From Rhynchobatus australiae (lineage: Eukaryota): a DNA stretch of 64,000 bases. Under the pieces are notes generated by a model. It worked only from the letters and a program-made list of their open reading frames with translations. It did not search any database and was not told the origin of the DNA. This document shows, piece by piece, positions 8,962 through 57,059 of the stretch. Within the stretch, counting starts at the first letter, position 1. Each line of letters opens with the position of its first letter. The stretch is taken from contig JAUZTB010000066.1 of NCBI GenBank assembly GCA_034780895.1, forward strand, positions 19,487,413 through 19,551,412, read 5' to 3'. The translations under genes and the position numbers were made by a program.

Positions 8962-9080
8962 ATATTTTTAACCTCTTTGCTAACGAATCTGGGAGCTATG
9001 TTGTTCGAGAGGAGATGGAAACAATGTTACGAGCTTGTGATGGAGAGGTTCAACTTGGAGTCAAAAAGTGCTTTATGGAG
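8962..9080 (+). CDS. USP32: USP32 exon 4 (119 nt, phase 1 to 0)
   Basis: ttacag|AT...GAG|gtatgc; (Y)IFNLFANESGSYVVREEMETMLRACDGEVQLGVKKCFME. Confidence 0.93.
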
Positions 9081-18206: not shown

Positions 18207-18366
18207 GGAGAAAAGGTAAATTATGAGAAGTTCAAGAATTGGCTCCTTCAGAATAAGGATGCATTCACATTTGCTCGATGGCTGCTGTCAGGGGGAGTAT
18301 GTATCACTCTGACTGATGATAGTGATACACCTACCTTTTATCAAACTCTTGCTGGAGTCACTCATT
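18207..18366 (+). CDS. USP32: USP32 exon 5 (160 nt, phase 0 to 1)
   Basis: ttttag|GGA...CAT T|gtaagt; GEKVNYEKFKNWLLQNKDAFTFARWLLSGGVCITLTDDSDTPTFYQTLAGVTH. Confidence 0.97.
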
Positions 18367-19912
18367 GTAAGTATTTTTTTCTAAAATGGAGTTGGAATCA
18401 ATGATCATGAAATTTGCTGACATCCTAGCATTTAAGATTTTGCAGTGTTGAACCGTATTAAATTCAGCATGCAGACCTTTGTTTTGTGAAGAGTCCATTT
18501 ATCTGCGCTTGCCATTGCTATATTTTAAGTTGCTTTCTATTTTCTGCTTTTTACCTCAGCAAGCAGAGTGACTGAAAAAGACGTCATTATCTGCTGACGA
18601 CACAAGAGTAGGTGTGTCTAAACTTGAGTTAACTTAAGGGAAAAAAAGTGTACAATTTGCCCTGCAATTACATCAGAAATTGATGCACTGCCCACTACTT
18701 CTCCTGAATACTTTCACTTCCCATTTGTAATACCATTGAAGCAGGAATCTTGGACTNNNNNNNNNNTGTTCCAGTGTTTGAGTGTAAAGGCAAGCATCTA
18801 ACAACTTATTTTTTGGAAGTTTTAGTTCTCAACCAATATTTTTGTACAATTGGGTAATTAATGAATATAACTCTGTTAGCTCAAAGATAGAGGAAAAGAC
18901 TTATTTTTACAAAATGACTCTTATCTGTTTAGAATAATGGAAACCCTTGTGGATCACCTAATATCATATAGGATTCTAGTTTAATCTTGAGACAAAAATC
19001 TTTCTAATTTGAAATCTTACTTGAGAGATGACAAATTTTGGGGATACAATAATGATTCTGAATGCATTTTAATCTTTTTAAAATCAAATTGAAATGTTTC
19101 AAAAATATACTAAAACCTTGAGGTATAAAATGTTGAAATGCATGGCATGCATGAAATTTCAAATATGCATCTACAAATTCTATTTTAAAAATTTCCAACT
19201 GAGTTGAAAGAGATTAAAATGGTTAAACTATAGGGAAGTTAACTCATCTGATATTCAAAAGGCTGTTTCAAATTAGTCGGCACAACAACGTGGGCCGAAT
19301 GGCTTGTTCCTGTGCTGTACTGTTCCAAGTCTTTGAAGCTTACATGTGACGTTTATTATGAAACACTTGTGGTTTGTTGGTACATTATACAGTGAACAAC
19401 CTCCAAGTTCAAGATTCAGGAGAATGTCACAAATATGAGATTACAAGTGTATTGAACAGTGAGGGAAGCAGCAATTGATTTAATATTTGGAAGTGCATTC
19501 AACAAGGAGGAAGATGGAAATTGACCTCCAGGCCACAGGCAAACTGGTAATATGTAGCAAATGAAATTCAGCACAGAAACAACATGAGGAAATCTATTTT
19601 TGTAGGAAGAATGAGGACAGGCTATACATGCAACATAATGCAAACTTAAAAAGAGTGGAAGAACAAAGAAGCCCCAAGGTGTATGTTTTGAGATTTTTGA
19701 AGTTAGTGAAGCAGATTCACAAAGGTTAGGATTTTAAATGCATTGCCTTATAGGTGAGAATAGATTCAATAGAAACTACCAGGAATTGGAAATATTTGAA
19801 GAATGACATTTATCAAGAAACACTGGAACTTGGTGCATATTTAGAAAGAGTCAGACAGATTACTGGGTATGTATCATTGGACAGATTATCCTGTATGTAC
19901 TGTTCATGGAAC

Positions 19913-21218
19913 TTCTCTTGAAGTATTATGTCTGTGTTTATTGGTTGTATATCATCAACAAATGATTAATTAAGCACACCACATCAAGTGACATAACTAC
20001 AACTACAGGTATGCTAAACACCAGCTTATCCTTTGAAGATAATCCCATCATCTCTTGGTGTTGTGGGCCAATATAAGAGAAGAGTTTTTTTAAATGAAAG
20101 GCAGACTTTTTAATATAAATATTTTCTGTGAGGAAATCCTGAACTTTGCACTGCAACATTCTGCATGCATCATTAAAAAGCAGAAGAATAAATGCAAATC
20201 CCTGTGAAAGTTGGAAATCTGAAATAAGAATAGCAAAATTTTATAAATTTAAAGTATGATGATTTATCAAGACAGTATCCATTTATTCCTGATCTTTTAT
20301 AATTTTTTTTAAAAGTCCTTCAATGTATTTGCATTTTTATGTTGTTGCCCTCATTTTGTTTTTGAAGAATTGTACAGAGCAACAACCACAATTTTCAGGT
20401 ATACCTTTTTCAGTGACAAAACATTCTCTGTTCCAACAATATTTGGTGTTTTAAAAAGTAATGTCCTCTTATTTGTCATGGAGCAATTAGATTTTATAAC
20501 AAAGGAATTATTTTCCATATTCACTATTAAAGCAGTCCACTGTTGGAATGAAAATAATTCTAGTATCCCACTTTGAGATACAATGGCTTTCTAACTCTGT
20601 CCTGATGAATCTAATTTGTACGCTTCCTTTTCCTTTTAATTTGGCTAATAAATCTACACATTGTATTCTAATGGTGGCCTAACTAATGATTTTACGAACT
20701 TCTTACTGCTCTTGCATTCAGTGCTCTTATTTATGAAACTTGAAATACTACTTTTTTAAAACCTGTTTCTGTACTAACATTTCATTAATTTTTATCCATT
20801 CTTTGTCCATGCAGTTGAACTATCTGAATTGCATTCTGTTGGCTATGAATTGATATTGTATCTCTTGGCTTACACTTGTGGGATTGGAATTCCATTGAAT
20901 AATTTGCCTTTCCAAGTTTCTGCATGGCTTGTTCATTGTCACTGTTCAGCTGCAAGCACATACCAAGATGGAGCGTGGACACTAAATGATAGGATGGACA
21001 TAATACATAGTACATATGCTTCCAAAACTAACAGTACAATTGCACTTCACTTTGCCCCAATCGTGTTTTGTATTTAATCCTCCAGAGAAGTGGGTTTATT
21101 TTCAAAGGATAGCTGGTGTTTACCCTACCATAACTGTAGTTGCGTCACTTGATGTGGTGTGCTTAATCAATCTTTTTTTAATGACGCAACCAATAAATGC
21201 AAACAGAACACCAAGAGC
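19913..21218. repeat. Inverted repeat pair (arms ~19913-20058 and ~21081-21218, spacer ~1 kb)
   Basis: Arms are reverse complements, sharing a perfect 24-mer attaagcacaccacatcaagtgac and the block taaacaccagct(t)atcctttgaa. Confidence 0.85.
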
Positions 21219-21939
21219 TAAAGAGTAGAGTTAGTTACTCTGCAGAGAAATCTACTCTACCCAGCAACTGGCATCCTGTTGCCGTAACACCGTTTCAGTT
21301 GTAACCCATAACTGAGTCAACAACCTTAAATTCATAAATCTAGGACATTTAACTGGAGACAAGACTTCAACAATAATCTTAAAAGGTGCATCAAAATGTC
21401 TACATCTGACTTTTCAATGTAAAGCAAGCCCTTCTCAGTCATCCAGGCTCTTAGGACCTCCTGTTTTGAACAGGTTTTGGTTCAGCACTCCTCTCTTTGG
21501 GCATTTCACGAGGATATCTGTGAATTTGGTAGCTTTGATCAGAAATCTTTATCACTCTGCATGTTGGATCAGTGTGTAGCTAACGTGTGTCCTCATCCCA
21601 TTCCTGGTGGAATGGATGTATGAGTAATATTTTTCATAACCTTGTAACTAGGCAATCATAAGCAAGTTATCTAGCCATTTGATCTATGTACTGCAGCTTG
21701 GCACAGCCAGCGTGGAATTTGACTATCTGTGACTGAAGACAAACAAGCTACTAGTAATATGACACCATGGAGCTTCCCCAAGCAACTGGGGAGACTGACA
21801 AACTTTATAGCATGACAATTCTCAGACCTGAGATTTTTGACTTGATAAGATTTGTTATTTATTCTAAGGATCTGGGAGTTTGCCACAAAGTTGACATTCA
21901 CTGCTTGTCCCTAATTGTTCCTTTATAGTGGAATTGAAT

Positions 21940-22048
21940 GATGTCACGAACTGGGCTCAGAATATCATGAGGGGAGAGGGTGATCAGCCAGAAGTCGTGG
22001 TACATGTGGGTACCAACGACATAGATAGAAAAATAGAAGAGGTCCTTA
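21940..22048 (+). mobile_element. CR1 ORF1 fragment (SGNH esterase domain)
   Basis: NIMRGEGDQPEVVVHVGTNDIDRKIEEVL at 21961-22047 (GxND block). Confidence 0.8.
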
Positions 22049-22059
22049 NNNNNNNNNNN

Positions 22060-22505
22060 CTCACTTGTGGTTGATGAAGATGTGGGGAAAAAACTGTCAG
22101 TGCCCCAGGTATCCCCTCCCTTGCTTTCCTTAGCAATTTGGGATAGATCTCATAACGTCCTGGAGATTTATCAACCCTTCTGTGTCCCATGACATCTAAC
22201 ACCTTTTTTTAATATTGACTTGCTCCAGATTATCCACGCATCCTCCTTTTGTACTCATTATTTTCCATGTCCCCTTGTGGATACAGGTGGGAAATATTCA
22301 TTTTTGACATCACCTGGCTTCACATAAAAGTTGCCCCTTTTCCCTGACTATCCTCTTGCTCCTGATATAGAATGTCTTGGGATTCCCTTTAATCTTACTT
22401 GCCAAAGATATTTGATAGCCCCTTTTTGCTCTCCTTTTTCTTAAATTCTTTCCTCCATCCTCAATTCCTCAAGAGACTCCCTAAATCCTAGTTGCCTGTA
22501 CATGC
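22060..22505 (-). mobile_element. CR1 ORF2 fragment
   Basis: VDKSPGRYEIYPKLLRKAREGIPGAL (cf. KSPGPDGIYPRLLRE). Confidence 0.8.
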
Positions 22506-25500
22506 CACACTTTAGCAGATAATACTAATATATTCTACAGACTTACAAATGGGTACACTGCCCTGTGAAGTTAAAATTATCTGTAAAAGTGAGCCATTTC
22601 AGGGAGCCTTTTCTATGGGTGAGCAGGCACCAGTAATTGTGCGTTTCGAGATAATTTGTAAAAATGCTCAGTTGAAGATGTGAAACAGCAACATTTTCAA
22701 ATAGCCAGAGTAACTTGTCAAAATGTACATGAAAATACTCAGTGCCAGAAACCTGGGAAAAAAAAGGAAATGTTAAAATTACACTGGAGAACCCTTCCAC
22801 AGTATGGTCGGTCATCCTTCGTGTCTCTTCGTCCCCACATCACTTCTCTAATCTCTGCACTTGAGATTTATTGTTCCTGACATGTTTGACTTTTGATCAA
22901 AGGGTAATTAACTTTAAACATTATTTTCATAGTTATTACTTCTTCTACCAAGTATTTACAGAATTTTCTGTTATGTAAGATTGATTGCTGGCCTTTTTGT
23001 TCCTTAAAGTTGATGGAGGGGATTTTGATATTGTATGCCAATTAGAGAAATTGCTGGTGCAATGTAATCATCAGCTTGTCTTATTATCCTCTTAATTCTT
23101 AGCTGTACTCTGAGCAGGTGGATTTACTCCACATAACCTCTGAGTCTCATGATGGAATACTTCATTGCTGTAGAAATGATGATGGTTTAATGTATATAAT
23201 TTGAATACACTATTTATTGTCCTCTGCATTGGCTGACCTGTTGAGCTTGCTTTTGAAATCCTCTATCGTTTGAGTATGGGCATAAATCTTGACCGAGGGT
23301 TGTCAGTGTGGGTTGGATTATGGTCTGCCTGCTCTGCTGCCTGCCTGAAAGAATAGCACCTGCAGGTGGGTGAATAATTACTGGGACAGGGCAAGTAGTA
23401 GTACTTCTGAAATGTTCCTATGAAACTCACTTTGTTGTAATATAAGCTGATACTTGGTTCTTTTAAAATTTCACATACATTAATATATATTTTAACTCAA
23501 TGTTGTATGGAAAGGCAACCGTTTTTAAACAAGGTATATGAATTGTAATGCTGAACAATTTTAACTGGTAATTTTATTTTTTACTTTAGAAACTTGTATT
23601 TTCATCAGTCTTAGACTGGCTCTTGCTATTAATATCTCTCATTTCTTTGAATGTGGAGTTGAAGCAGATACAAATCTATGCATAGATGACGTTAATGCTT
23701 GCAGCAACGTACACACATTTCTGAATTGCACATAATGATTTCTCAGTCCATTATGTAGTTCTGAATAACTCGTGAAAGAAGGAAGGGATGGAAGCACAGT
23801 TGAAAATACGGGCAAATGGGATTAATGTAGATAGGCATTCCTGTCGGCATGGATGAGGTAAGCCATAAGGGCCCATTTCTGACTTGTGCATTTTGATGGC
23901 TCTCTGAAAAATTTGAGAGTTCATCAAAAATTTAGAGGGAAGTTCCAATTTTTGAGATGCTGAAGAATTTCCTGTAGATGGATTCTTGGGAGGAGTTGTT
24001 GCTGCTTTTAAATAGTAAATGAAGATGCCATCTGAGCAATGGAAAGGTCATCTATGCTTCCATAGTAGGCACAGTAGGAAATCAGCAGAGGACTTGAAAG
24101 CGAGAGTCTGTGGAACTTAGCAAGGCCAAAAAAATAAAAGCATATCTCCTTGCAAAAAAGGCATGTAATCATTGGTGAAGTAATAAATCTGAGTGGCAGT
24201 TTAATTGCTAACATTAACCACAAGAAGGAAACTTTAGATCCGAGCACTAGATATTCCATGATGACTGAGTGGGCTTGGTAGGAGAAATGGTGGAGGTAAT
24301 GTAATGTCAATATTGTGAATGTTAGGGATGGAGCCATGAGAGATTAGAACATGTATGGCTCTACCAAAGAAAACTAAGCACAAAGGAAATTAGATTAAAA
24401 TAACTTAATTTCTAAATTTGTTCTTTTGTTTCAAATATAGAAATGTGGGTAGGACTCTTGGATCTAAAAACAGGCCAACCTCGTTCTTGTGTGGTCCTGA
24501 CAGCCTTCTTAGAAAAGATGCTATATTAATAAAAGATGGTACTGATGATGTCACCACACCCACATCGAGAACATCAACTTATTTCCCTTCCTTAAGTTAT
24601 TGTCAGGCCATGGCTGTTCACATTTTATTGTAGTGGATATAATTGAAATTTATATTATTTTTAATTCTAGTCTAATTGGATTTAATTTTGTGGTTTTTTT
24701 TGACGAATAGACAATAGAATGCAAAGCTAAGCAATGAATTCTTCACAACTGCTCTCTGACTCCAAATTTTGCAATCAGTTGAATAGAACATTTGTATTGC
24801 CCTCTGAAATTAAGTGTTAAGTAGTTTGGTTCCCTATGCCACAAAATTTGATGCTGTGTATTTGATATTCCACATTTAACCTTGCTTTTAGCAAAACTCT
24901 TATTCAGGTTGGTTTTGGTTTGTTTTAGTCTGTGTTTAAGAAATATGTCTTGCACACACATTTTAACTTGATTTTGTGCACTGATATGGATCAATACTTA
25001 TGCTTGCTTTTTGTGTATTTTCTCTTAATTAATGTTTGTTTGCAAAGTTTTAACACCTTTTAATGTTTCTTTGAGTTTCTCACAGCAAGTCCTTTGGTAC
25101 CAGCTATTGGCTATCTTCTCACTGCACACAATGGTTTGGTTCAAATTTTCTTGATAGGATATGCTGCTTTGAGTTTTCTCTGGAAGAGGTAGGGGAATTT
25201 AGCCAGGGAATGACCATGTAGGAACAGTTCTGTGGTGAGAACATGAGTAAAGATGCTAATTGTTATGTGATTGTCAAAGTCCACATGAGGTTGGTAAAAA
25301 AAGACTATGTTTAAGTTTGTATATTTGATAACTATATAGTTTGAAAATGATTGTGGTATGGAATCAGTCTTATTTATTTTCAATCGTATTTGGGGGGAAA
25401 TGCACTTGACTACATTTGTTGTTTTATTCATATGCAACTATATATTTATCTATTATTAAAACAAAATGAGTCAGGTGGAGCTGCATCTTAAGTAACTTCA

Positions 25501-25583
25501 CTTTTAGAAACTTCACTTTTGCAGGAAGCAACAGTTAGAAAATGAGGAAAAAGTGATTATAATTGATGATCAATTCTTGAGCT

Positions 25584-25673
25584 GATAGAGCAGTAATGCT
25601 GGGAGATTCAATAGTGTGGGGGGGGGATAGGATAGAGCAGTAGTGCTGGGAGATTCAATAGTTGGGGGGATAG
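25584..25673 (+). repeat. Tandem duplication (47 nt and 43 nt units)
   Basis: gatagagcagtartgctgggagattcaatagt-(G run)-atag occurs twice, at 25584 and 25631. Confidence 0.9.
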
Positions 25674-25995
25674 GCAGGGGTTTCTTGTGATGCAGATATA
25701 ACTTCAGGACAGTGGTGTCTCTTCCCCACCCCCCCGCCCTTCCCACCAGCTGCCAAGTTCAAGGATGTTCCTGAAGGGTGAAGATGAAGAACCATCAGTT
25801 GTGGTCTACATGCCAGAATTCTCCATGCTGGAGTACTGTCTGATTGCAATCAAAATGGAATTGATACATTTCTGGATACTTAAGGAATCAGGGGATATGG
25901 CATAGTGCAGAATGTGTGTTGGGAAAGAAGAACTGCAATGATCATGTTGAATGGCAAAGCAGGTTTGAGGGGCCAAATGGCCTACATCAGCTTCA
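25584..25995 (+). mobile_element. Internally deleted CR1: ORF1 esterase fragment joined to 3' UTR
   Basis: RAVVLGDSIVGG (GDS block) and EGEDEEPSVVV, then ttgatacatttctggatact...ggccaaatggcctac tail. Confidence 0.7.
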
Positions 25996-28900
25996 ATCTC
26001 TTGTTGTCTTGTGTCTACCCTTATCCAGTCTTGACTTTACTATCCCTAAATTTAATCTCTTCACAATTGACAATTATTTCTTCTGGATCTAAGGCGCTAA
26101 GCTCTGAAATTAATTCTAGTTCACTTGCACCCTTCAAGATGTTCTTTGGGAGCTATCCCTATGCTCAAGCCTTTGGTTGGCTACTCTAGTATCCACTTAA
26201 GGTAATCTTAGGTCGATAACATTCCTCTGAGATATTTATGTTGTATTAAAGATACCATGTAAATATAAGCTGTTGACGACTAAAATAATTGTAGTATCAT
26301 TTCTATATTGCAATGATTACAACTGATAAGTTGGTCTGGTCATAATTAAATATTTTCCTGCAGGAAAAATGGGAGCATGGATGACTGCATATTGGCCAGT
26401 GGCTTATTTCAAACTAAATGCATTCCTTTGTTTCAGATTAAAAACCAGATCAAAATTATAAATGAAAACTCACTTTAGCTCTTGAAATGCTTGCCATTCT
26501 GGCTAAGTTTATTGTTTTGGCAGAATAAAGTGCATTATTATTTGACGACTGGACCATATTTAGTTTAATGGGACTCTGTAATCTGAATGTCCTTCAGATC
26601 AACATTCTTGTTTGCTTTGCTGTAGTGTGATATGCTATGTTATTAGCTTAAGGGTGAAATAATTTGAATTCCTGTTTTGAAATTCCCTATTTAAAAAGAG
26701 TTACTGCAAAATTATGTATCATTTGGCTTGCTGGTCTGCACTAAATTTAAATGTCACTTGACATTTTTTTTACTGAAAATGAAAGTGGAAAACCACGGTA
26801 CTTTTGTACAAAATCACTGAGGTTTTAGTTTGGGAATTTTGGAAATTCACTTCCATGCTGATATTTTTGTTCTTTTTTCATTTGTTGGTGATGGCATTAT
26901 GTGCATCTTATGCTTATGAATAAGCCAGATATGCAGTCATGTGGCTGTTTACTGAGAGACATTTTTGGTATTTATGTATGGCCCTTTAAATTTAAGTCAT
27001 CCAATTTCTCTGCCACCTTTCTTTGCCTCTATACTTGTAGATTTCGGATTGTAGATCTTAATTTCTTCTTGTTTGGATGGAAGATCAGACCACAGAAGCT
27101 ATCCTACATGCTGGGAATTTCCAGCATTTTCTGGTCTAACTCAAAATGGATTGAAGTGTTTGACAAAAATGGTGTAAAAACTCAAGGGACTGCAGTAGGT
27201 TATTGCTAGAAAGGAACAACCAATTACAAAGTTTGTATCAACAGGCATATTCCTTTTAAGTTCTCCATCCAGTAAACTAGGTTGGTGAAATGGAAAATGA
27301 AAGATCATTATTATTCTTGTGCATTTCCAAAATGGAAAGAAGTATTTGTGTTTGCAGATGAATGAAGATTAGGCTAAGGTGTCAAAAGGCATAGTCCCTT
27401 GGAATACTGAAAGGACTAGAGACAAGGTGACATGTTAAGGGAGGGCATGAACCTGCAGGTGGCAAAAATGGTAGAGGATTATCCACAGAATGCAGAACTA
27501 TGGTTGCTGTTTAGAATGTTGTATAACAATCACATACAGTTAATTTAAAGACCTTGCATGTGTAACTTAGTGTTTGTCTGGGAATTTAAAAAAAATATAA
27601 TAGCTAGAAATGCCAGCATGAAGCTTAGTTCATAAGTTATCCATTTTGTACAATTTTTGTGTCTGTGTGGCGAGAGAAGAGAAGCTTTGATATGAGCCAT
27701 ACAGTTCTTCACTTTGGACTTTGGATGCTGGGAGCACAGCCACAAATTGGATAGAGTGAAGCTATACAGTAGAATGTGGCATCCCTTCTGTGACAAGTAA
27801 CAAACACATTTTTAGTGCTTTTAACTTGGTATATAACATGCTTATGCTCAGAAGATATTTCTAGCTATTAAATTTATTGTGAAATTAAATATTGAGCTGG
27901 AGGTGTTTCGTAGATGGAATTTAAATATCCATGGTTAATACAGCCTGAGATTATGAATTGTAATTCCATAATTTTTTGAATTATTTGATAGAATATATAA
28001 TTTGATGCAAATCTTTTTCTGGACTTCATGTCAAAAATGTGGAAAATTATTTAAAACTTCATCACTGATGCAGAAATTATTGCAACTCTGTTTTTAAAAA
28101 GGTTGATGTTGTGGTAAATGTTTTCTGAATCCATGAGTTTGATAAACTTAAACTAGTTTCTTTGAGGTTCAGTAACTTATCTAATGGAATCCTGTTTTTT
28201 ATATTGAGATGGATTAACTGTGCCTTAAAGTCAGCTGGGTAATGAGATAATATACAGCTGCCATGAATATGGCAACAGGATTCAGTTTCTCTACAATCCA
28301 GTTCTTAATCTAAAAATGTACAAATGTAGGGTAAACTCAAAATTATTAACAAAGTGGATCTTGGAGAGAGATGATTTAATCCATCACCCTCGAATACNNN
28401 NNNNNNNNNNNNNNNNNNNNNNNNNNNNNNNNNNNNNNNNNNNNNNNNNNNNNNCATGTTTTATTTTCCTTCGGGAACCACCAGATGCCCTATAGTTTAC
28501 ATCAGCAAAGTTGGCAGGATTTATCAGTGACAACTACGTTGATCTGAACAGGCAAAAATGACTGTTTTAATTAAATTTATCTGGGTGTTGGCTCGTAGCT
28601 TGGAATCATAGAAAAGATGGACAAAAAGGAGGCCATTGAGCCCATTGTGTATGTGCCAGGACTTGCATTTTAATAGAGATTAATTTTTTGGAAGAGATGC
28701 ATATAATGAAGCTTCTCAATGTGCACCATAACCAGCTATAAAAATGGCTGGAGTTATTTCAGCCCAAATTGCCTTCTCCCCCACCCACACATTGGCTTAA
28801 GATCTTTGCCTGGGGAATTTCCAAGATGGCAGAGATGACAAGTTCTGTGACATGCTCTGTCAGAATTTAGTGGTACAGAAAGAACATTATAGAGACCAGA

Positions 28901-29336
28901 CTTGCTCATTAGATAAGAATAGAATTTATTACATATTTTAATGTAATAATAAAAATCTGTCATGCCATCAACTGTCTGACTCATGGCAGGGAACTTTTAT
29001 TTTGTTTCAGAATAACTTTTTGCATAATGCAAAACTGTTCAGTGAATTGGAACACGCAAAGTCACGGTGATTTCCCTTCCCCCAAAATTGTATTTATTTA
29101 CCACGTTTGAATGAACCAAGGTGCTTAACAGGAACATTGTCAAACAAAATTTGACATTGTCCCATGAGATATTAGGGTAGGTTACTTGGTTAAAGAGTGA
29201 AGTTTTAGTAAGGAAAGAGTGGTAAAGGCAAGAGCTTCATGGAGGCAATTCAAGATTAGTCAATTTCTTTGTCTTAGTCAAGTTAATAAAAACAGTGTCT
29301 TGCAGGAAATGAGAATCATACTGAGGTTATCTTCAA

Positions 29337-29495
29337 CAACAAACAATCCGCTGGAGGAACAAAGCAGGTTGAGCAGCATCTGTGAGAGGAAAGGAATTTT
29401 TGATGTTTCGGGTTGAAACTCTACATCAGGACCTGCACCACCTCCAGCAGATTGTTTGTTGCTCCAGATTCCAGCATCTGCATTTTCATGTCTCT
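29337..29495. mobile_element. Penelope pLTR-derived short element with inverted arms
   Basis: caacaaacaatccgctggagg (29337-29357) versus cctccagcagattgtttgttg (29441-29461), 20/21 complementary; tail gctccagattccagcatc shared with ~47500. Confidence 0.65.
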
Positions 29496-31339
29496 GAAGT
29501 CATCTTCAGACCACTTTCAAGAAATATGGAAAATCCAGCAGCAGGTTGTCACATTTTACTCCTTTACAGTATATCTTGTCCCCTTCTAAAGGCAATATAT
29601 TGAGGAAAAAAGGCTGGGATTCCAAAATCTACCTGACTGATACGTTTCCATTCTATGAACCAAAATTATAAAGCCATTATATTTCTGTTGTAATTCATAT
29701 TAATTGTAACAGAAACATAAAAATGCTAGAAATACTCTGCAATTCAGGTAACGTATTTGAAGAGAGAAATGGAGTTAACATTTCATATCATATGAACTAG
29801 GAGAAAATAATAGCCATCTTTATAAATTGTAGAGAAGAGGGAGGGCTGGAGAGCACAAATGGAATGTCTGTGATAGCGAGAAGACCAAGAGGATCCAAAT
29901 AACACAGTTGGTGTTGATTTAAAACAAAAATTAACTCAATTTATTCTGTCTTCTCAATTGTCACCTGGCCTGCTGAGTACTTCCTGTATTGTCTTTTACT
30001 TCAGATTTGCAGCAGGTAGTGAACACTTCCAGCATTTTCTTTCTTTTCTTTCCTCTTCTCATCTCCCTCTTTTACACTTGTCCCAGGCAGATCAGTCACC
30101 CTCTTTCAGCTGGCAGCAACATTACATGTGATTGCATTAAGCTATAAATAAAATACACCCAACCTTAATTCATATTGACACATCATACTTCAAGTACTTC
30201 AAATATGTTTCAACATGTATCCTATCAGTTGGTAGGCAAAACTGTCTGTTTTCTCTTTGCTTGCATGATGTGAATAAAAATATATATATTCTAAATGAAT
30301 GTGGACCCCAGAGAGGTTTAAAAGTATGGTAAAGGAGAAGTTTATTGTTTTCCTCTCATTGATTCCTCAGCCATACAGTGACTACCTGTTTTCATCCTGT
30401 TTGTCAGCTTTAATAAACCATTCTGAGGCCATGTAAAGGAAGGTCTTCTTGAGTGTGCAGATCTGACTGCAGTGAAGTCTGACTGCCGCACTGACCAGTG
30501 ACCTCACACACAGATTGAGGCACTATTGAATCTGAATTAAGTTGCCTTTCACAAGATGTAATCTAAGCATTTTAAGATTTGTTTTACCCTATGAGCATAG
30601 TTAATTTTTAATTAATATTTTGTAGCATAATGCATAAATCAAAAATCCATCAAATAGCATAATTGGTTACTAAGGTTTTATTATACTAACATGGGAATTA
30701 ATTACTCCATTATTTATAGTACAGGTGTAGAGTATAATAATCTTAAAGTNNNNNNNNNNNNNNNNNNNNNNNNNNNNNNNNNNNNNNNNNNNNNNNNNNN
30801 NNNNNNNNNATTGTAGTGTTGAAGTCAACAAAGCCAAAATTTTTTGAAATCAGTCAATCTCCATGATCACTCAAGTCCAAAAGAAATTGACATTAAATGT
30901 TCTTTCTAAGTGTTCAAATGACTTAATTTGGTCCTAAGACCATGCTGATTGCTGGGGTATCTTTTAAACATCGACTTCCATTTATTTCAGTTTACTGTCA
31001 CCCTGTTACAACCTATCTTTTTCAAACCATTCTTTGATGGCAATGATCCAGCTGTGTTGGGTTTTTCTCTTTGTCAGACCACAGCACCCAGCAGGATGGT
31101 GGTGGTAGTAAGGGTGTTGGACTTCTTGTTATAGCTTCAAACTGTTACATGTTTGATTTCTTATTGTGATTTCAAGCTTTCATTCAGCTTTCCTGGCAAT
31201 CATTATGCCATTTGCAGTGATTACAAATTTCTTGCTTTTTGCACCACAAATGCTATGTTTTGAGTCCTGGGATTTTGGTGGCTGGAAGCAGAGTAAAATT
31301 TGATAATGTTACCTATTCAAATCCATGCCTGACATTTCT

Positions 31340-32300
31340 GTACAAATCTTTCCAATTGTGCTTTTGGTACTGCAACAGCACCAAAATGGCTCTAACCAAA
31401 ATAATTTTGACTATTATCTTTGACTATTGTGCATTATTTTGTATTATTAGCCTGTCTTCAGATTGTATGTCTGTGAACATGGCAAACCATCCATCCTCCT
31501 GCAAATTCTCTCTTCTTTTATCCATTTCTATGCAATTGTCTTCATGAGTCCTGCCTATTTCATTTCATCTTCAGATCTCTCTCTGTCTGACAGTTCCTCA
31601 ACATTCAATCCATGGTTCCCTCCCCTGCCTCCTTTTGTTTCCGCACACATCAAATCCATTTCCAAGTATGCATTATCCACTTTTCCATCATTAGCCTCGC
31701 ACAACTAATATAAAATCTGATCAAGGATAAGTTGCTACTCTTTCAGCTAAACATTTGGGAAGGCTAAAGGAGCTGTTTTCAAACTCATTCGTGAGCCACT
31801 GCCAAATATTATTTCTTTCCTCAGTCACATTTATGGATAAACCACACTATAAACGAGGTTGAAATTTTAAACTCCCAAGCTGATTCTGTAACTTTAGATC
31901 ACATCTGCTATGAAGATGACTTCCATTCCTGTAATATCATCCACCTCTGCCATATCTACACTGTCTAAACTCTCATACATATCTTTACCCTTCCACATGT
32001 GTCTGATTCCAATGCAATTCCAGGCAGCCTTCTCTTTTCTATGCTCCATAAAATTATTCAAATCCAAAAATCTGCTGTGGTATCCTGTCATGCTGTATGA
32101 GCATTTTTGCACATCACTACATACTTTTTGATGTGTATTGCATTCCACTTACCCAGTTTTGCAAACTCTTCTACTTGTGTATTAATGTGTAAGAGTGTCA
32201 TGGAGTTCCGTATCTCTGTAATTTGCTCCTGCGTACAACACCTATGCTCCATCTCCCCTATAATTGTCTCCAGCTTCTAAAGGTCAGCTAAAACAGTCTT
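31340..32300 (+). mobile_element. L2-like LINE RT remnant, heavily decayed
   Basis: NSTKMALTKI (cf. HSTETALLKV) and downstream degenerate RT/3' segments; ends approximate. Confidence 0.5.
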
Positions 32301-32743
32301 GCCTTTTCTGTCTGCGTGATTAATATTTCCATTGGTCTGATAGCCAATGTTTCTCTTTCTGAATCATCTAGGTACATTTTTTTCACATTAAAGTCACAGT
32401 ACAGATTCATTTCTCATGAGTTTGAAGCCAAATTGTACAAAAATACTTAATGTGTTCTTTTAGCCATTGGTAACCATATGATTTTAAGAAATGTCATTTG
32501 AATTGAATAAATCTGCATAAACTATGGTGCAGTTCATTGATTGTAATTTGCTGCTGATATTTTAAGCATGTATTTGACAGTTTTATAACCTACAATTTTG
32601 TATCAATCAGTTTGGAAAAAAATTGTAAAAGAAAAACAAACACTGCACAAGAGGGAAATCAAAATTGATATTTCGTGTCAATGATCTTTGATCTGAATAT
32701 TGCTTTTTCTATTATCTGCTAATGTATTTGTTTCTATTCACAG

Positions 32744-32875
32744 TGGAAGAATCTGATATAATTGATCTTGAGAAACGGTACTGGCTGCTTAAGGCTCAGT
32801 CGAGAACGGGACGTTTTGATTTGGAAACATTTGTTCCTTTAGTTTCTCCACCCATCCATCCATCTTTAAGTGAAG
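32744..32875 (+). CDS. USP32: USP32 exon 6 (132 nt, phase 1 to 1)
   Basis: tcacag|TG...GAA G|gtaatg; (L)EESDIIDLEKRYWLLKAQSRTGRFDLETFVPLVSPPIHPSLSE. Confidence 0.97.
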
Positions 32876-55011: not shown

Positions 55012-55129
55012 GTTATTAAAAATACAACAACAAATCAAGCAGAGCTCGAGTTGTTTCCTCGTTACCTTCTTTTCTTGCGACAACAACCAGCCGCACGTAC
55101 TCAACAGTCTAACATCTGGGTGAATATGG
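55012..55129 (+). CDS. USP32: USP32 exon 16 (118 nt; possible long form to 55165)
   Basis: ttgtag|GTT...ATG G|gtatga; VIKNTTTNQAELELFPRYLLFLRQQPAARTQQSNIWVNM. Confidence 0.95.
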
Positions 55130-57059
55130 GTATGATGAGCCTGAGAACATTTCCTCACCATGGAGGTATTGTAAGACTGCAGCAAGAATGGGAGTTGTTA
55201 GCTTTCTAGTTGCTTCATGCCAAATCCACCTGTTTCATTTTCAAATCAAGATTGTAGTTATCACTGAAAGTTATCATTGAGATTTTCTCAAAGCCACATG
55301 GCCAATTGGGGTCTGCTGGTTCAGGAAAAATAGTAGAAATGAAAAACTTTTGGAGTGTTTCTGACATCCTTTGAATTTCCTTCTCTAATTGAAGACCATG
55401 AAATTGATTATATGACAATATTTATGGCACTTAAGCATTTTGGCTATGGTAATCCACAAAATACAATATGTGCAATCTAATTGAATGATTTAAGTGCCAA
55501 GTAAAATTTGATTAGCTATCAATTATCGAAATTTGATTATATAGACAGATATAATGTACAGAACCCTGGATTCATTTATATTTCCAGTTCCTCTCAAATG
55601 GGGCCCAGTGCTTTCTATGCTAATTTCTTTCCCTGAGCAGCATTTGGAGAAAACTCAAATGATAACTTTCTGAATCTTATCCTGCAATGTTTTTAGAGAA
55701 TTGTTCTTAAATTTACTGATCCATTTTCTTGCTGTAATCTTACATCTGTACCTTTTTTAATTTATGATTTAACTGATTTTTTTTCTTACGCAATAGCTTT
55801 AACTTGCGTTATCCCCTGCAATATACTTTTTGTAGTTTACATGCTCATAAATTTCCCAAAGAAATAATTTAACTATCAATTTCTTTGCAAATTAAATGTT
55901 TATCTTTACTATGTGCTTTTTCAAGGAATTAATTCACAAACTTTTTTTAATTTTTGAAAGTTTAGTTACTTGATGAAGAAGGATAATCATGCACATTTTA
56001 TAAGCTTCTCTTTTTTTTAACTGTCCAATTTCATCATGTGCCTTTGCCATCAGATTCGGTAATTATCTTGTCAGAGGGATGTGCAGTTTTGTTTGTGCCA
56101 GTTTTTAGGAAGAGCTTTCTCATAGTGCTATACTATGATCTAATTGAGATTTTGACATTTCCACATAAAGAATATGTATTGTAAACCCACATGATCTTTC
56201 TATATGTTAGAACACATTAATTTACTGGTCCATTTTGCTACTGAGTCACTTTTGACCTTAAATTCATCAAGAATACTGAAGAGGAGCAAAAGGGTTTAAA
56301 GGGAACCAATTTAGCTTTGTTTTCAAATAGAAAATTTGAATCATTGTAGATCTATGGAAATATCTTCAAATATCACATTTTAAAGTACAATAATAAAATG
56401 TTATGCTTAATTTGTTTTTTCAATAAAATCTACCTTGTAGAGCAAATAATTCCATGTAATATTCTGTTTTATTAGCTATTTTGCAAAAATGTTGATTTAC
56501 AAGCCAATTGGAATTCAAGTGCAACAGAATCAATTGCTTTCTAATTGAATTGAAATTGTTATATTAAATCTTTCCTCTACTCAGCCTTTATGTGGAAAGG
56601 AATCAATATAATGGACACTTAATTATCAACATATAGGTAGTTTTATTATTTTGATTGCCTGGAAATGAATCATAACTATTAATGGACTGCAACAAATAGA
56701 TGGAGGTTGATAACTTTTTTTTGCTTGATAACTGAATGCTTTGCAAGAATGAAAACAAAATAAGTATAGGTAATAAATAGCCTTGCAGTTCTTCACTTCC
56801 TAATCACACTTTGTTGTCTGAAGTCAAATGGGCTTTTATTCATTTCAAACCTGAGGAAGAAAGAAGGCTTATAATTGCAGTATGTGTGCAGGAAAAATGG
56901 TTTTGTCCACCACATCTTGCCACCAGTATAACTTGCAATAGTACCGAGCAAAATGTCACTTTGAATGCCCTGGCACTATCTGGTGTGGTATTAACATGTT
57001 AAGTTATCTTGTATCATGCCTTGTATGTTTTCATGTTAAAATAGTTGTTCTGAATTTAG

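Follow-up and report, generated by a model that had tools for sequence, protein, structure and literature searches.

In the KChIPs, variable N-terminal exons equip an NCS-type EF-hand core with leaders that may be myristoylated, S-palmitoylated or of another kind, and the leader determines where the protein is located, as described in excerpts of PMC3973911. Some presumed S-palmitoylated KChIPs are diffuse in neurons according to the same excerpts, and a cysteine motif therefore does not guarantee membrane targeting. A second described leader belongs to an enzyme. LIMK1 carries a vertebrate-conserved Cys7/Cys8 pair in a 15-residue N-terminal leader that suffices for targeting and for which a myristate plus a single cysteine is no substitute (sections of PMC4429338). 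Among deubiquitinases, splice forms of USP19 and USP33 direct one catalytic domain to different compartments; USP19 has a C-terminal transmembrane tail, and neither enzyme is described as a case of N-terminal lipid exchange in the excerpts of PMC4755399 and PMC5484354 consulted here.

USP32 governs late-endosome traffic via Rab7, acts on Vangl, and has been located at the Golgi, the endoplasmic reticulum (ER) and vesicles (PMC6440979, PMC13526532); the sections of these two papers that were consulted mention no isoform or lipid anchor, and their main texts contain neither "isoform" nor "prenyl". The enzyme is also being pursued as a drug target. The listed titles and abstract beginnings of the USP32 literature yielded no description of a short, cysteine-tipped isoform, which, like its acylation, subscription papers or supplements may mention, and a term search of 10.64898/2026.01.01.696821 gave no matches. 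The closest counterparts of the locus described below are predicted short USP32 isoforms of bony vertebrates, which share with the ray the peptide family, its length, the cysteine pair and the junction with exon 6. They differ in being automatic models from bony vertebrates, for which we found no functional description, whereas the ray is a cartilaginous fish.

A probable coding start exon in intron 5 of USP32

The window analysed here is a 64,000-nucleotide stretch of contig JAUZTB010000066.1 from the ray Rhynchobatus australiae. To place the USP32 exons, 15 USP32 proteins from sharks and rays were aligned to the window by tblastn. The highest identities to the window came from skate, sawfish and stingray proteins (0.92-0.93), compared with 0.86-0.89 for sharks; three further ray proteins gave lower values (0.84-0.90) over longer alignments. 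Intron 5 spans 14,377 nt (18367-32743), and the alternative start exon lies inside it on the same strand as USP32 (Table 1). Many short gaps, adding up to 2,459 N bases, interrupt the window; intron 5 accounts for 138 of these bases, and a non-coding leader exon could therefore lie concealed. Elsewhere in the gene, one exon at 55012-55173 apparently can end at either of two donors, one near 55131 and the other some 36-42 nt downstream; the spacing matches the 12-14 residues by which the X1 and X2 isoforms annotated in sharks and rays differ.

Table 1. Features of USP32 and of the patch around the alternative start exon, in window coordinates
Feature	Position	Strand	Basis
USP32 exon 4	8964-9080		tblastn
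USP32 exon 5 (start approximate), last exon missing from the short form	18207..18366	+	tblastn
CCAAT match, within chance	23228..23232	-	motif count
Putative uORF, out-of-frame, overlapping, 26 codons	23276..23356	+	sequence reading
In-frame TGA 5' of the ATG	23290..23292	+	sequence reading
12 nt directly before the ATG, in-frame V-G-W-I	23308..23319	+	comparison with homologue records
Alternative start exon, coding part, MVCLLCCLPERIAPA + one G (phase 1)	23320..23365	+	sequence reading and homology
12-bp palindrome over the donor	23357..23368	.	sequence reading
Splice donor GTGGGT	23366..23371	+	5.5 vs 3.1-3.9 for three annotated donors tested (approximate matrix)
USP32 exon 6, acceptor common to both forms, opens second NCS-like repeat	32744..32875	+	tblastn

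The initial annotation had proposed that an internal first exon gives USP32 a cysteine-cluster N-terminus, and the elements it listed are present in the sequence. The ATG has the claimed strong context (A at -3, G at +4) and opens a peptide of 15 residues, encoded by 23320-23364. The 46 coding nucleotides end in phase 1, and joining 23365 to the acceptor at 32744 leaves the exon-6 frame open. The donor reads CAG/GTGGGT at 23365/23366, as claimed, and the in-frame stop upstream is the TGA of Table 1, which rules out the exon as an in-frame coding cassette continuing from farther upstream. Directly before the start Met, where the window reads V-G-W-I, darter record P0122 reads V-P-W-I, and these 12 nt are possibly a conserved 5' leader sequence. 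Together with a second Met in three records, the darter residues suggest that the A at -3 is kept, on few data points.

The surrounding patch was also said to be GC-richer and unlike any repeat recognised there. Its GC content is 50%, a value reached by only 0.7% of 152-nt windows; the 64-kb window contains no second copy, and a local-repeat scan was empty over the exon. Read depth indicates single copy in two DNA runs. Run X1, possibly from the source sample, shows no difference from the window across 22589-23974. Run X2 comes from a relative and also covers the patch; over ~2 kb it differs by 56 letters and 38 gap positions. On either side of the patch, at 21900-22570 and 23780-23910, lie fragments of high-copy repeats, with depths of hundreds to thousands versus about 6-7. 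Rfam gave no matches in intron 5.

Several accompanying motifs carry less meaning. The reverse CCAAT (ATTGG) and the palindrome of two E-boxes over the donor both exist as claimed; intron 5, however, contains 27 copies of CCAAT/ATTGG and 85 of CANNTG, so such matches mean nothing here, and the CCAAT box, the E-boxes and the palindrome were dropped as evidence. The out-of-frame uORF overlapping the start is likewise real as a reading frame. A CCAAT box usually lies about 60-100 nt from the start site, and if this one kept that distance the uORF ATG would fall outside the transcript.

Homologous N-termini in bony vertebrates

A search with exon 6 alone, of which 120 of 569 matches were listed, gave three teleost isoforms that start with a short cysteine peptide immediately followed by exon 6. 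A second search (120 of 506 matches listed) and cluster listings brought the total to 15 records. These are predicted USP32 isoforms from 15 species: 12 teleosts, a reedfish, a frog and a colobus monkey. The conservation check proposed in the initial annotation found the peptide on exon 6 as far away as frog and primate, and the core claim of that annotation is borne out at this level. Representative leaders are MVWYLCCHSERVAPLV (teleost), MVCCCCHPDRIVPIV (reedfish, XP_051786764.1), MVYFYCCEPARIAPVV (frog, XP_068124826.1) and MVYCCCDPEKIIPIV (colobus, XP_023060458.2); the teleost records comprise sockeye salmon (XP_064880259.1) and 11 more species. All 15 are automatic gene models, a class that usually rests on RNA-seq introns.

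In every homologue the leader, 15-16 residues long, meets exon 6 at an identical residue and retains the cysteine pair. Met, Val, the cysteine pair, one basic residue and Pro are present in 15/15, a pattern that was also used for selection. The nine homologues compared with the window peptide share 8-10 of its 15 residues, and the frog protein matches it pairwise at 9/14 positions (E 5e-05). At the junction, all 15 carry Val where the long form has Leu, implying that they use the same G/gt phase-1 donor. Exon 6 is present in 335 of the retrieved proteins of at least 300 aa; in 24 of them no more than 35 residues precede it, and the cysteine-leader family makes up 15 of the 24. The other nine were rejected as a family, being three partial records and six that are unrelated, truncated or intron read-through. 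One of these nine, a vole record (P0162, XP_048302697.1), has a different, non-cysteine short N-terminus on exon 6, seen once.

A profile of the homologues, built without the window and giving each of the four lineages equal weight, was scored against stop-free 15-mers in six frames. It ranks the peptide at 23320 first of 48,813 window 15-mers (45.6, next 22.2). Each lineage alone also ranks this peptide first of 5,648 intron-5 15-mers (44-47 versus 17-24).

The distribution of records is uneven. The leader was found in none of 32 listed shark and ray proteins (of 59 cluster members), and it is missing from two lungfish proteins and from the fetched bird, reptile, mouse and catfish records, a set that holds no human record. 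It was likewise found in 0/81 short, mostly contig-derived proteins retrieved in a search for short spliced fragments, and in 0/39 hand-picked upstream sequences, which are mostly from distant USP32 relatives (among 150 listed 50% representatives) and say little about range. The members listed, which are part of each cluster and set no firm limit on range, include no shark, ray, bird or mouse case, and the best ESM Atlas score (0.88) lies below its threshold. Tetrapod support consists of one record per class.

Rays and bony vertebrates have been separate for roughly 450 million years. With its copy in the ray, the start exon goes back to the ancestor that all jawed vertebrates share. A short form that has persisted from rays to a primate very probably has a function.

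The leader would join a complete NCS-like module

The first 360 residues of USP32 consist of two tandem NCS/calcineurin-B-like repeats, with residues 21-163 aligning to 192-356 (probability 98.2, E 2.9e-14). A model of the long form has two helical domains with a low-confidence linker (168-176) between them. By sequence, repeat 2 matches NCS-1 (E 1.4e-15), neurocalcin, hippocalcin, the KChIPs and calcineurin B, and a 400-residue model matches the NCS-1 fold (Foldseek E 2.7e-8, target TM 0.77). Pfam labels the first NCS-like domain only as USP32_N (window 8964-63114). Although akin to these small proteins, repeat 2 is a domain of a deubiquitinase of 1,400-1,600 aa rather than a stand-alone calcium sensor.

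The short form lies in register with whole NCS proteins. In the teleost short form P0309, residues 15-165 align to 15-169 of neurocalcin, 16-165 to 16-169 of hippocalcin, and 20-141 to 21-136 of calcineurin B. Its model has pLDDT below 50 at residues 1-16, where alignment rows are few, followed by a confident helical domain. Pfam finds that the short form loses USP32_N only, keeping the EF-hand, DUSP, Ubl and catalytic domains. The earlier statement that it keeps two EF-hands, DUSP and the catalytic domain is therefore correct about retention; the EF-hands, however, constitute a whole NCS-like domain and not two loose hands.

The arrangement of exons appears to repeat as well. Of 221 records, 37 lack the usual exon 1, and in these only V, I, L, F or M stand at residue 20, as expected if exon 2 starts in phase 1 inside codon 20. 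That position corresponds to the exon-6 acceptor. The internal exon therefore serves repeat 2 as exon 1 serves repeat 1; it attaches at the equivalent point, so that a short form made from it would have neither the Gly2 leader nor repeat 1. The exon-1 and internal-exon leaders have no evident sequence in common. Open contig-derived frames of distant relatives suggest that the intron before exon 6 is old.

Predicted lipid anchors of the two forms

Myristoylation by the usual rule needs Gly2. The initial annotation gave this modification as predicted for the long form, and a myristate probe lends the prediction proteomic support: long human USP32 is enriched 4.3-fold, the signal falling to about 0.09 with an NMT inhibitor, in supplementary rows of PMC4200515, where it is represented by 1-2 peptides in one replicate. 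In this single data set, with its thin peptide counts, human USP32 has the profile of an NMT substrate.

The short form has Val2 and by the usual rule cannot be myristoylated. What it has within its first ten residues, without Gly2, is an adjacent conserved cysteine pair at positions 6-7. The GAP-43 leader is basic; here the leader has one Arg or Lys only, followed by acidic residues, and the basic cluster beside the cysteine pair is missing. At the other end of the protein, CVLQ or CILQ terminates 233 relatives longer than 1,380 aa, including all four short forms inspected. This CaaX motif, which lies outside the window, is predicted to be prenylated.

The two published palmitoyl-proteomes consulted say little about either form. 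USP32 is missing from two supplementary files of PMC5498535, a statement that covers these files and not the main tables. In the 12 of 34 files of PMC9365392 that were covered, Usp32 stands in the "not UniProt reviewed" column, outside the SwissPalm cross-check.

Weighing the alternatives

The caveat raised at the outset, a chance coincidence of ATG, donor and phase, holds for the anatomy: at a loose donor threshold intron 5 contains five such candidates with about 3 expected, and at the exon's own donor score one candidate with 0.45 expected, or 0.19 with a strong ATG context, all counted with an approximate donor matrix. Homology is beyond such chance, since a profile independent of the window places the peptide top at twice the next score, and each of four lineages does so separately; unless the 15 records share the same error, coincidence is refuted, and we give it next to no credence. 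If the exon is homologous but no longer used in this ray, or on its way to loss, or serves only as a cassette that brings a stop between exons 5 and 6, this would account for the 32 listed shark and ray proteins without the leader and for the in-frame stops upstream within the patch. Neutral decay, however, would not have left ATG context, frame, cysteine pair, length and donor all intact after ~450 million years, which makes this alternative very improbable. It is somewhat less improbable, and still unlikely, that the same protein is made from a non-coding leader exon, transcribed from a promoter elsewhere and spliced into the start exon. Two pyrimidine-rich AG sites upstream (23101 and 23172) would permit this, and the patch has only two CpG dinucleotides and no promoter motif beyond chance; against it, no leader exon was identified, and AG sites are common in AT-rich introns.

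The fate of the cysteines is a separate matter. The exon could be translated and its cysteines bind a metal or a partner, so that the isoform drops repeat 1 and the myristate and keeps the C-terminal prenyl group as its sole anchor. Several species have three to four clustered cysteines followed by His, Asp or Glu, and Vangl2 binds the EF-hand region, so that the set of substrates could shift on loss of a repeat with no lipid involved. The invariant element, on the other hand, is an adjacent cysteine pair in a hydrophobic context at positions 5-7, like Cys7/Cys8 of LIMK1, and the residue that follows the pair may be H, L, Q, E or D, which is not what a fixed set of ligands would show. We regard a non-acylated leader as unlikely, while giving it more room than any of the alternatives above.

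A proposed role for the short form

Overall, we conclude with high confidence that the alternative exon is a functional coding start of USP32. The fuller reading, in which a conserved start exon supplies a predicted S-acylated cysteine leader that replaces the Gly2 leader and repeat 1 and retargets the enzyme, is in our judgment probably correct. An internal promoter in intron 5 would drive the short form, with the start exon spliced onto exon 6 in this ray. A zDHHC enzyme would then acylate the cysteine pair of the presumably unstructured leader, and a permanent myristate plus prenyl would give way to a reversible palmitate plus prenyl, the C-terminal CaaX motif being common to both forms. 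Short USP32 may thereby move away from the Golgi/ER pool, and a different membrane may bring a different substrate pool among the membrane substrates of USP32 (Rab7, Vangl).

This scheme resembles the described systems in part. As KChIPs already exchange lipid anchors by alternative N-terminal exons, USP32 would be a new case and not a new principle. KChIPs, as described in the excerpts of PMC3973911, are stand-alone channel subunits, whereas the core in USP32 belongs to a tandem pair carried by a deubiquitinase, and changing the leader would remove the other member of the pair as well. The LIMK1 leader is constitutive and involves no alternative exon in the sections of PMC4429338 consulted, and the likeness implies no homology. 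The exon itself is already in databases as unnamed predictions; new here are the cartilaginous fish copy and the structural rationale.

Finally, we tentatively suggest, as a possibility we hold at less than even, that USP32 is a deubiquitinase headed by a calcium sensor, with two NCS-like modules that each have their own lipid-leader exon, and that all jawed vertebrates including humans keep the overlooked second start, which would exchange myristate for a reversible palmitate pair and place the enzyme on another membrane in particular cell types. The short form offers a cheap and direct test of USP32 anchoring and of a second pool with other substrates. If the two-leader arrangement is true in all jawed vertebrates, work with the long cDNA only would miss half of USP32 biology.
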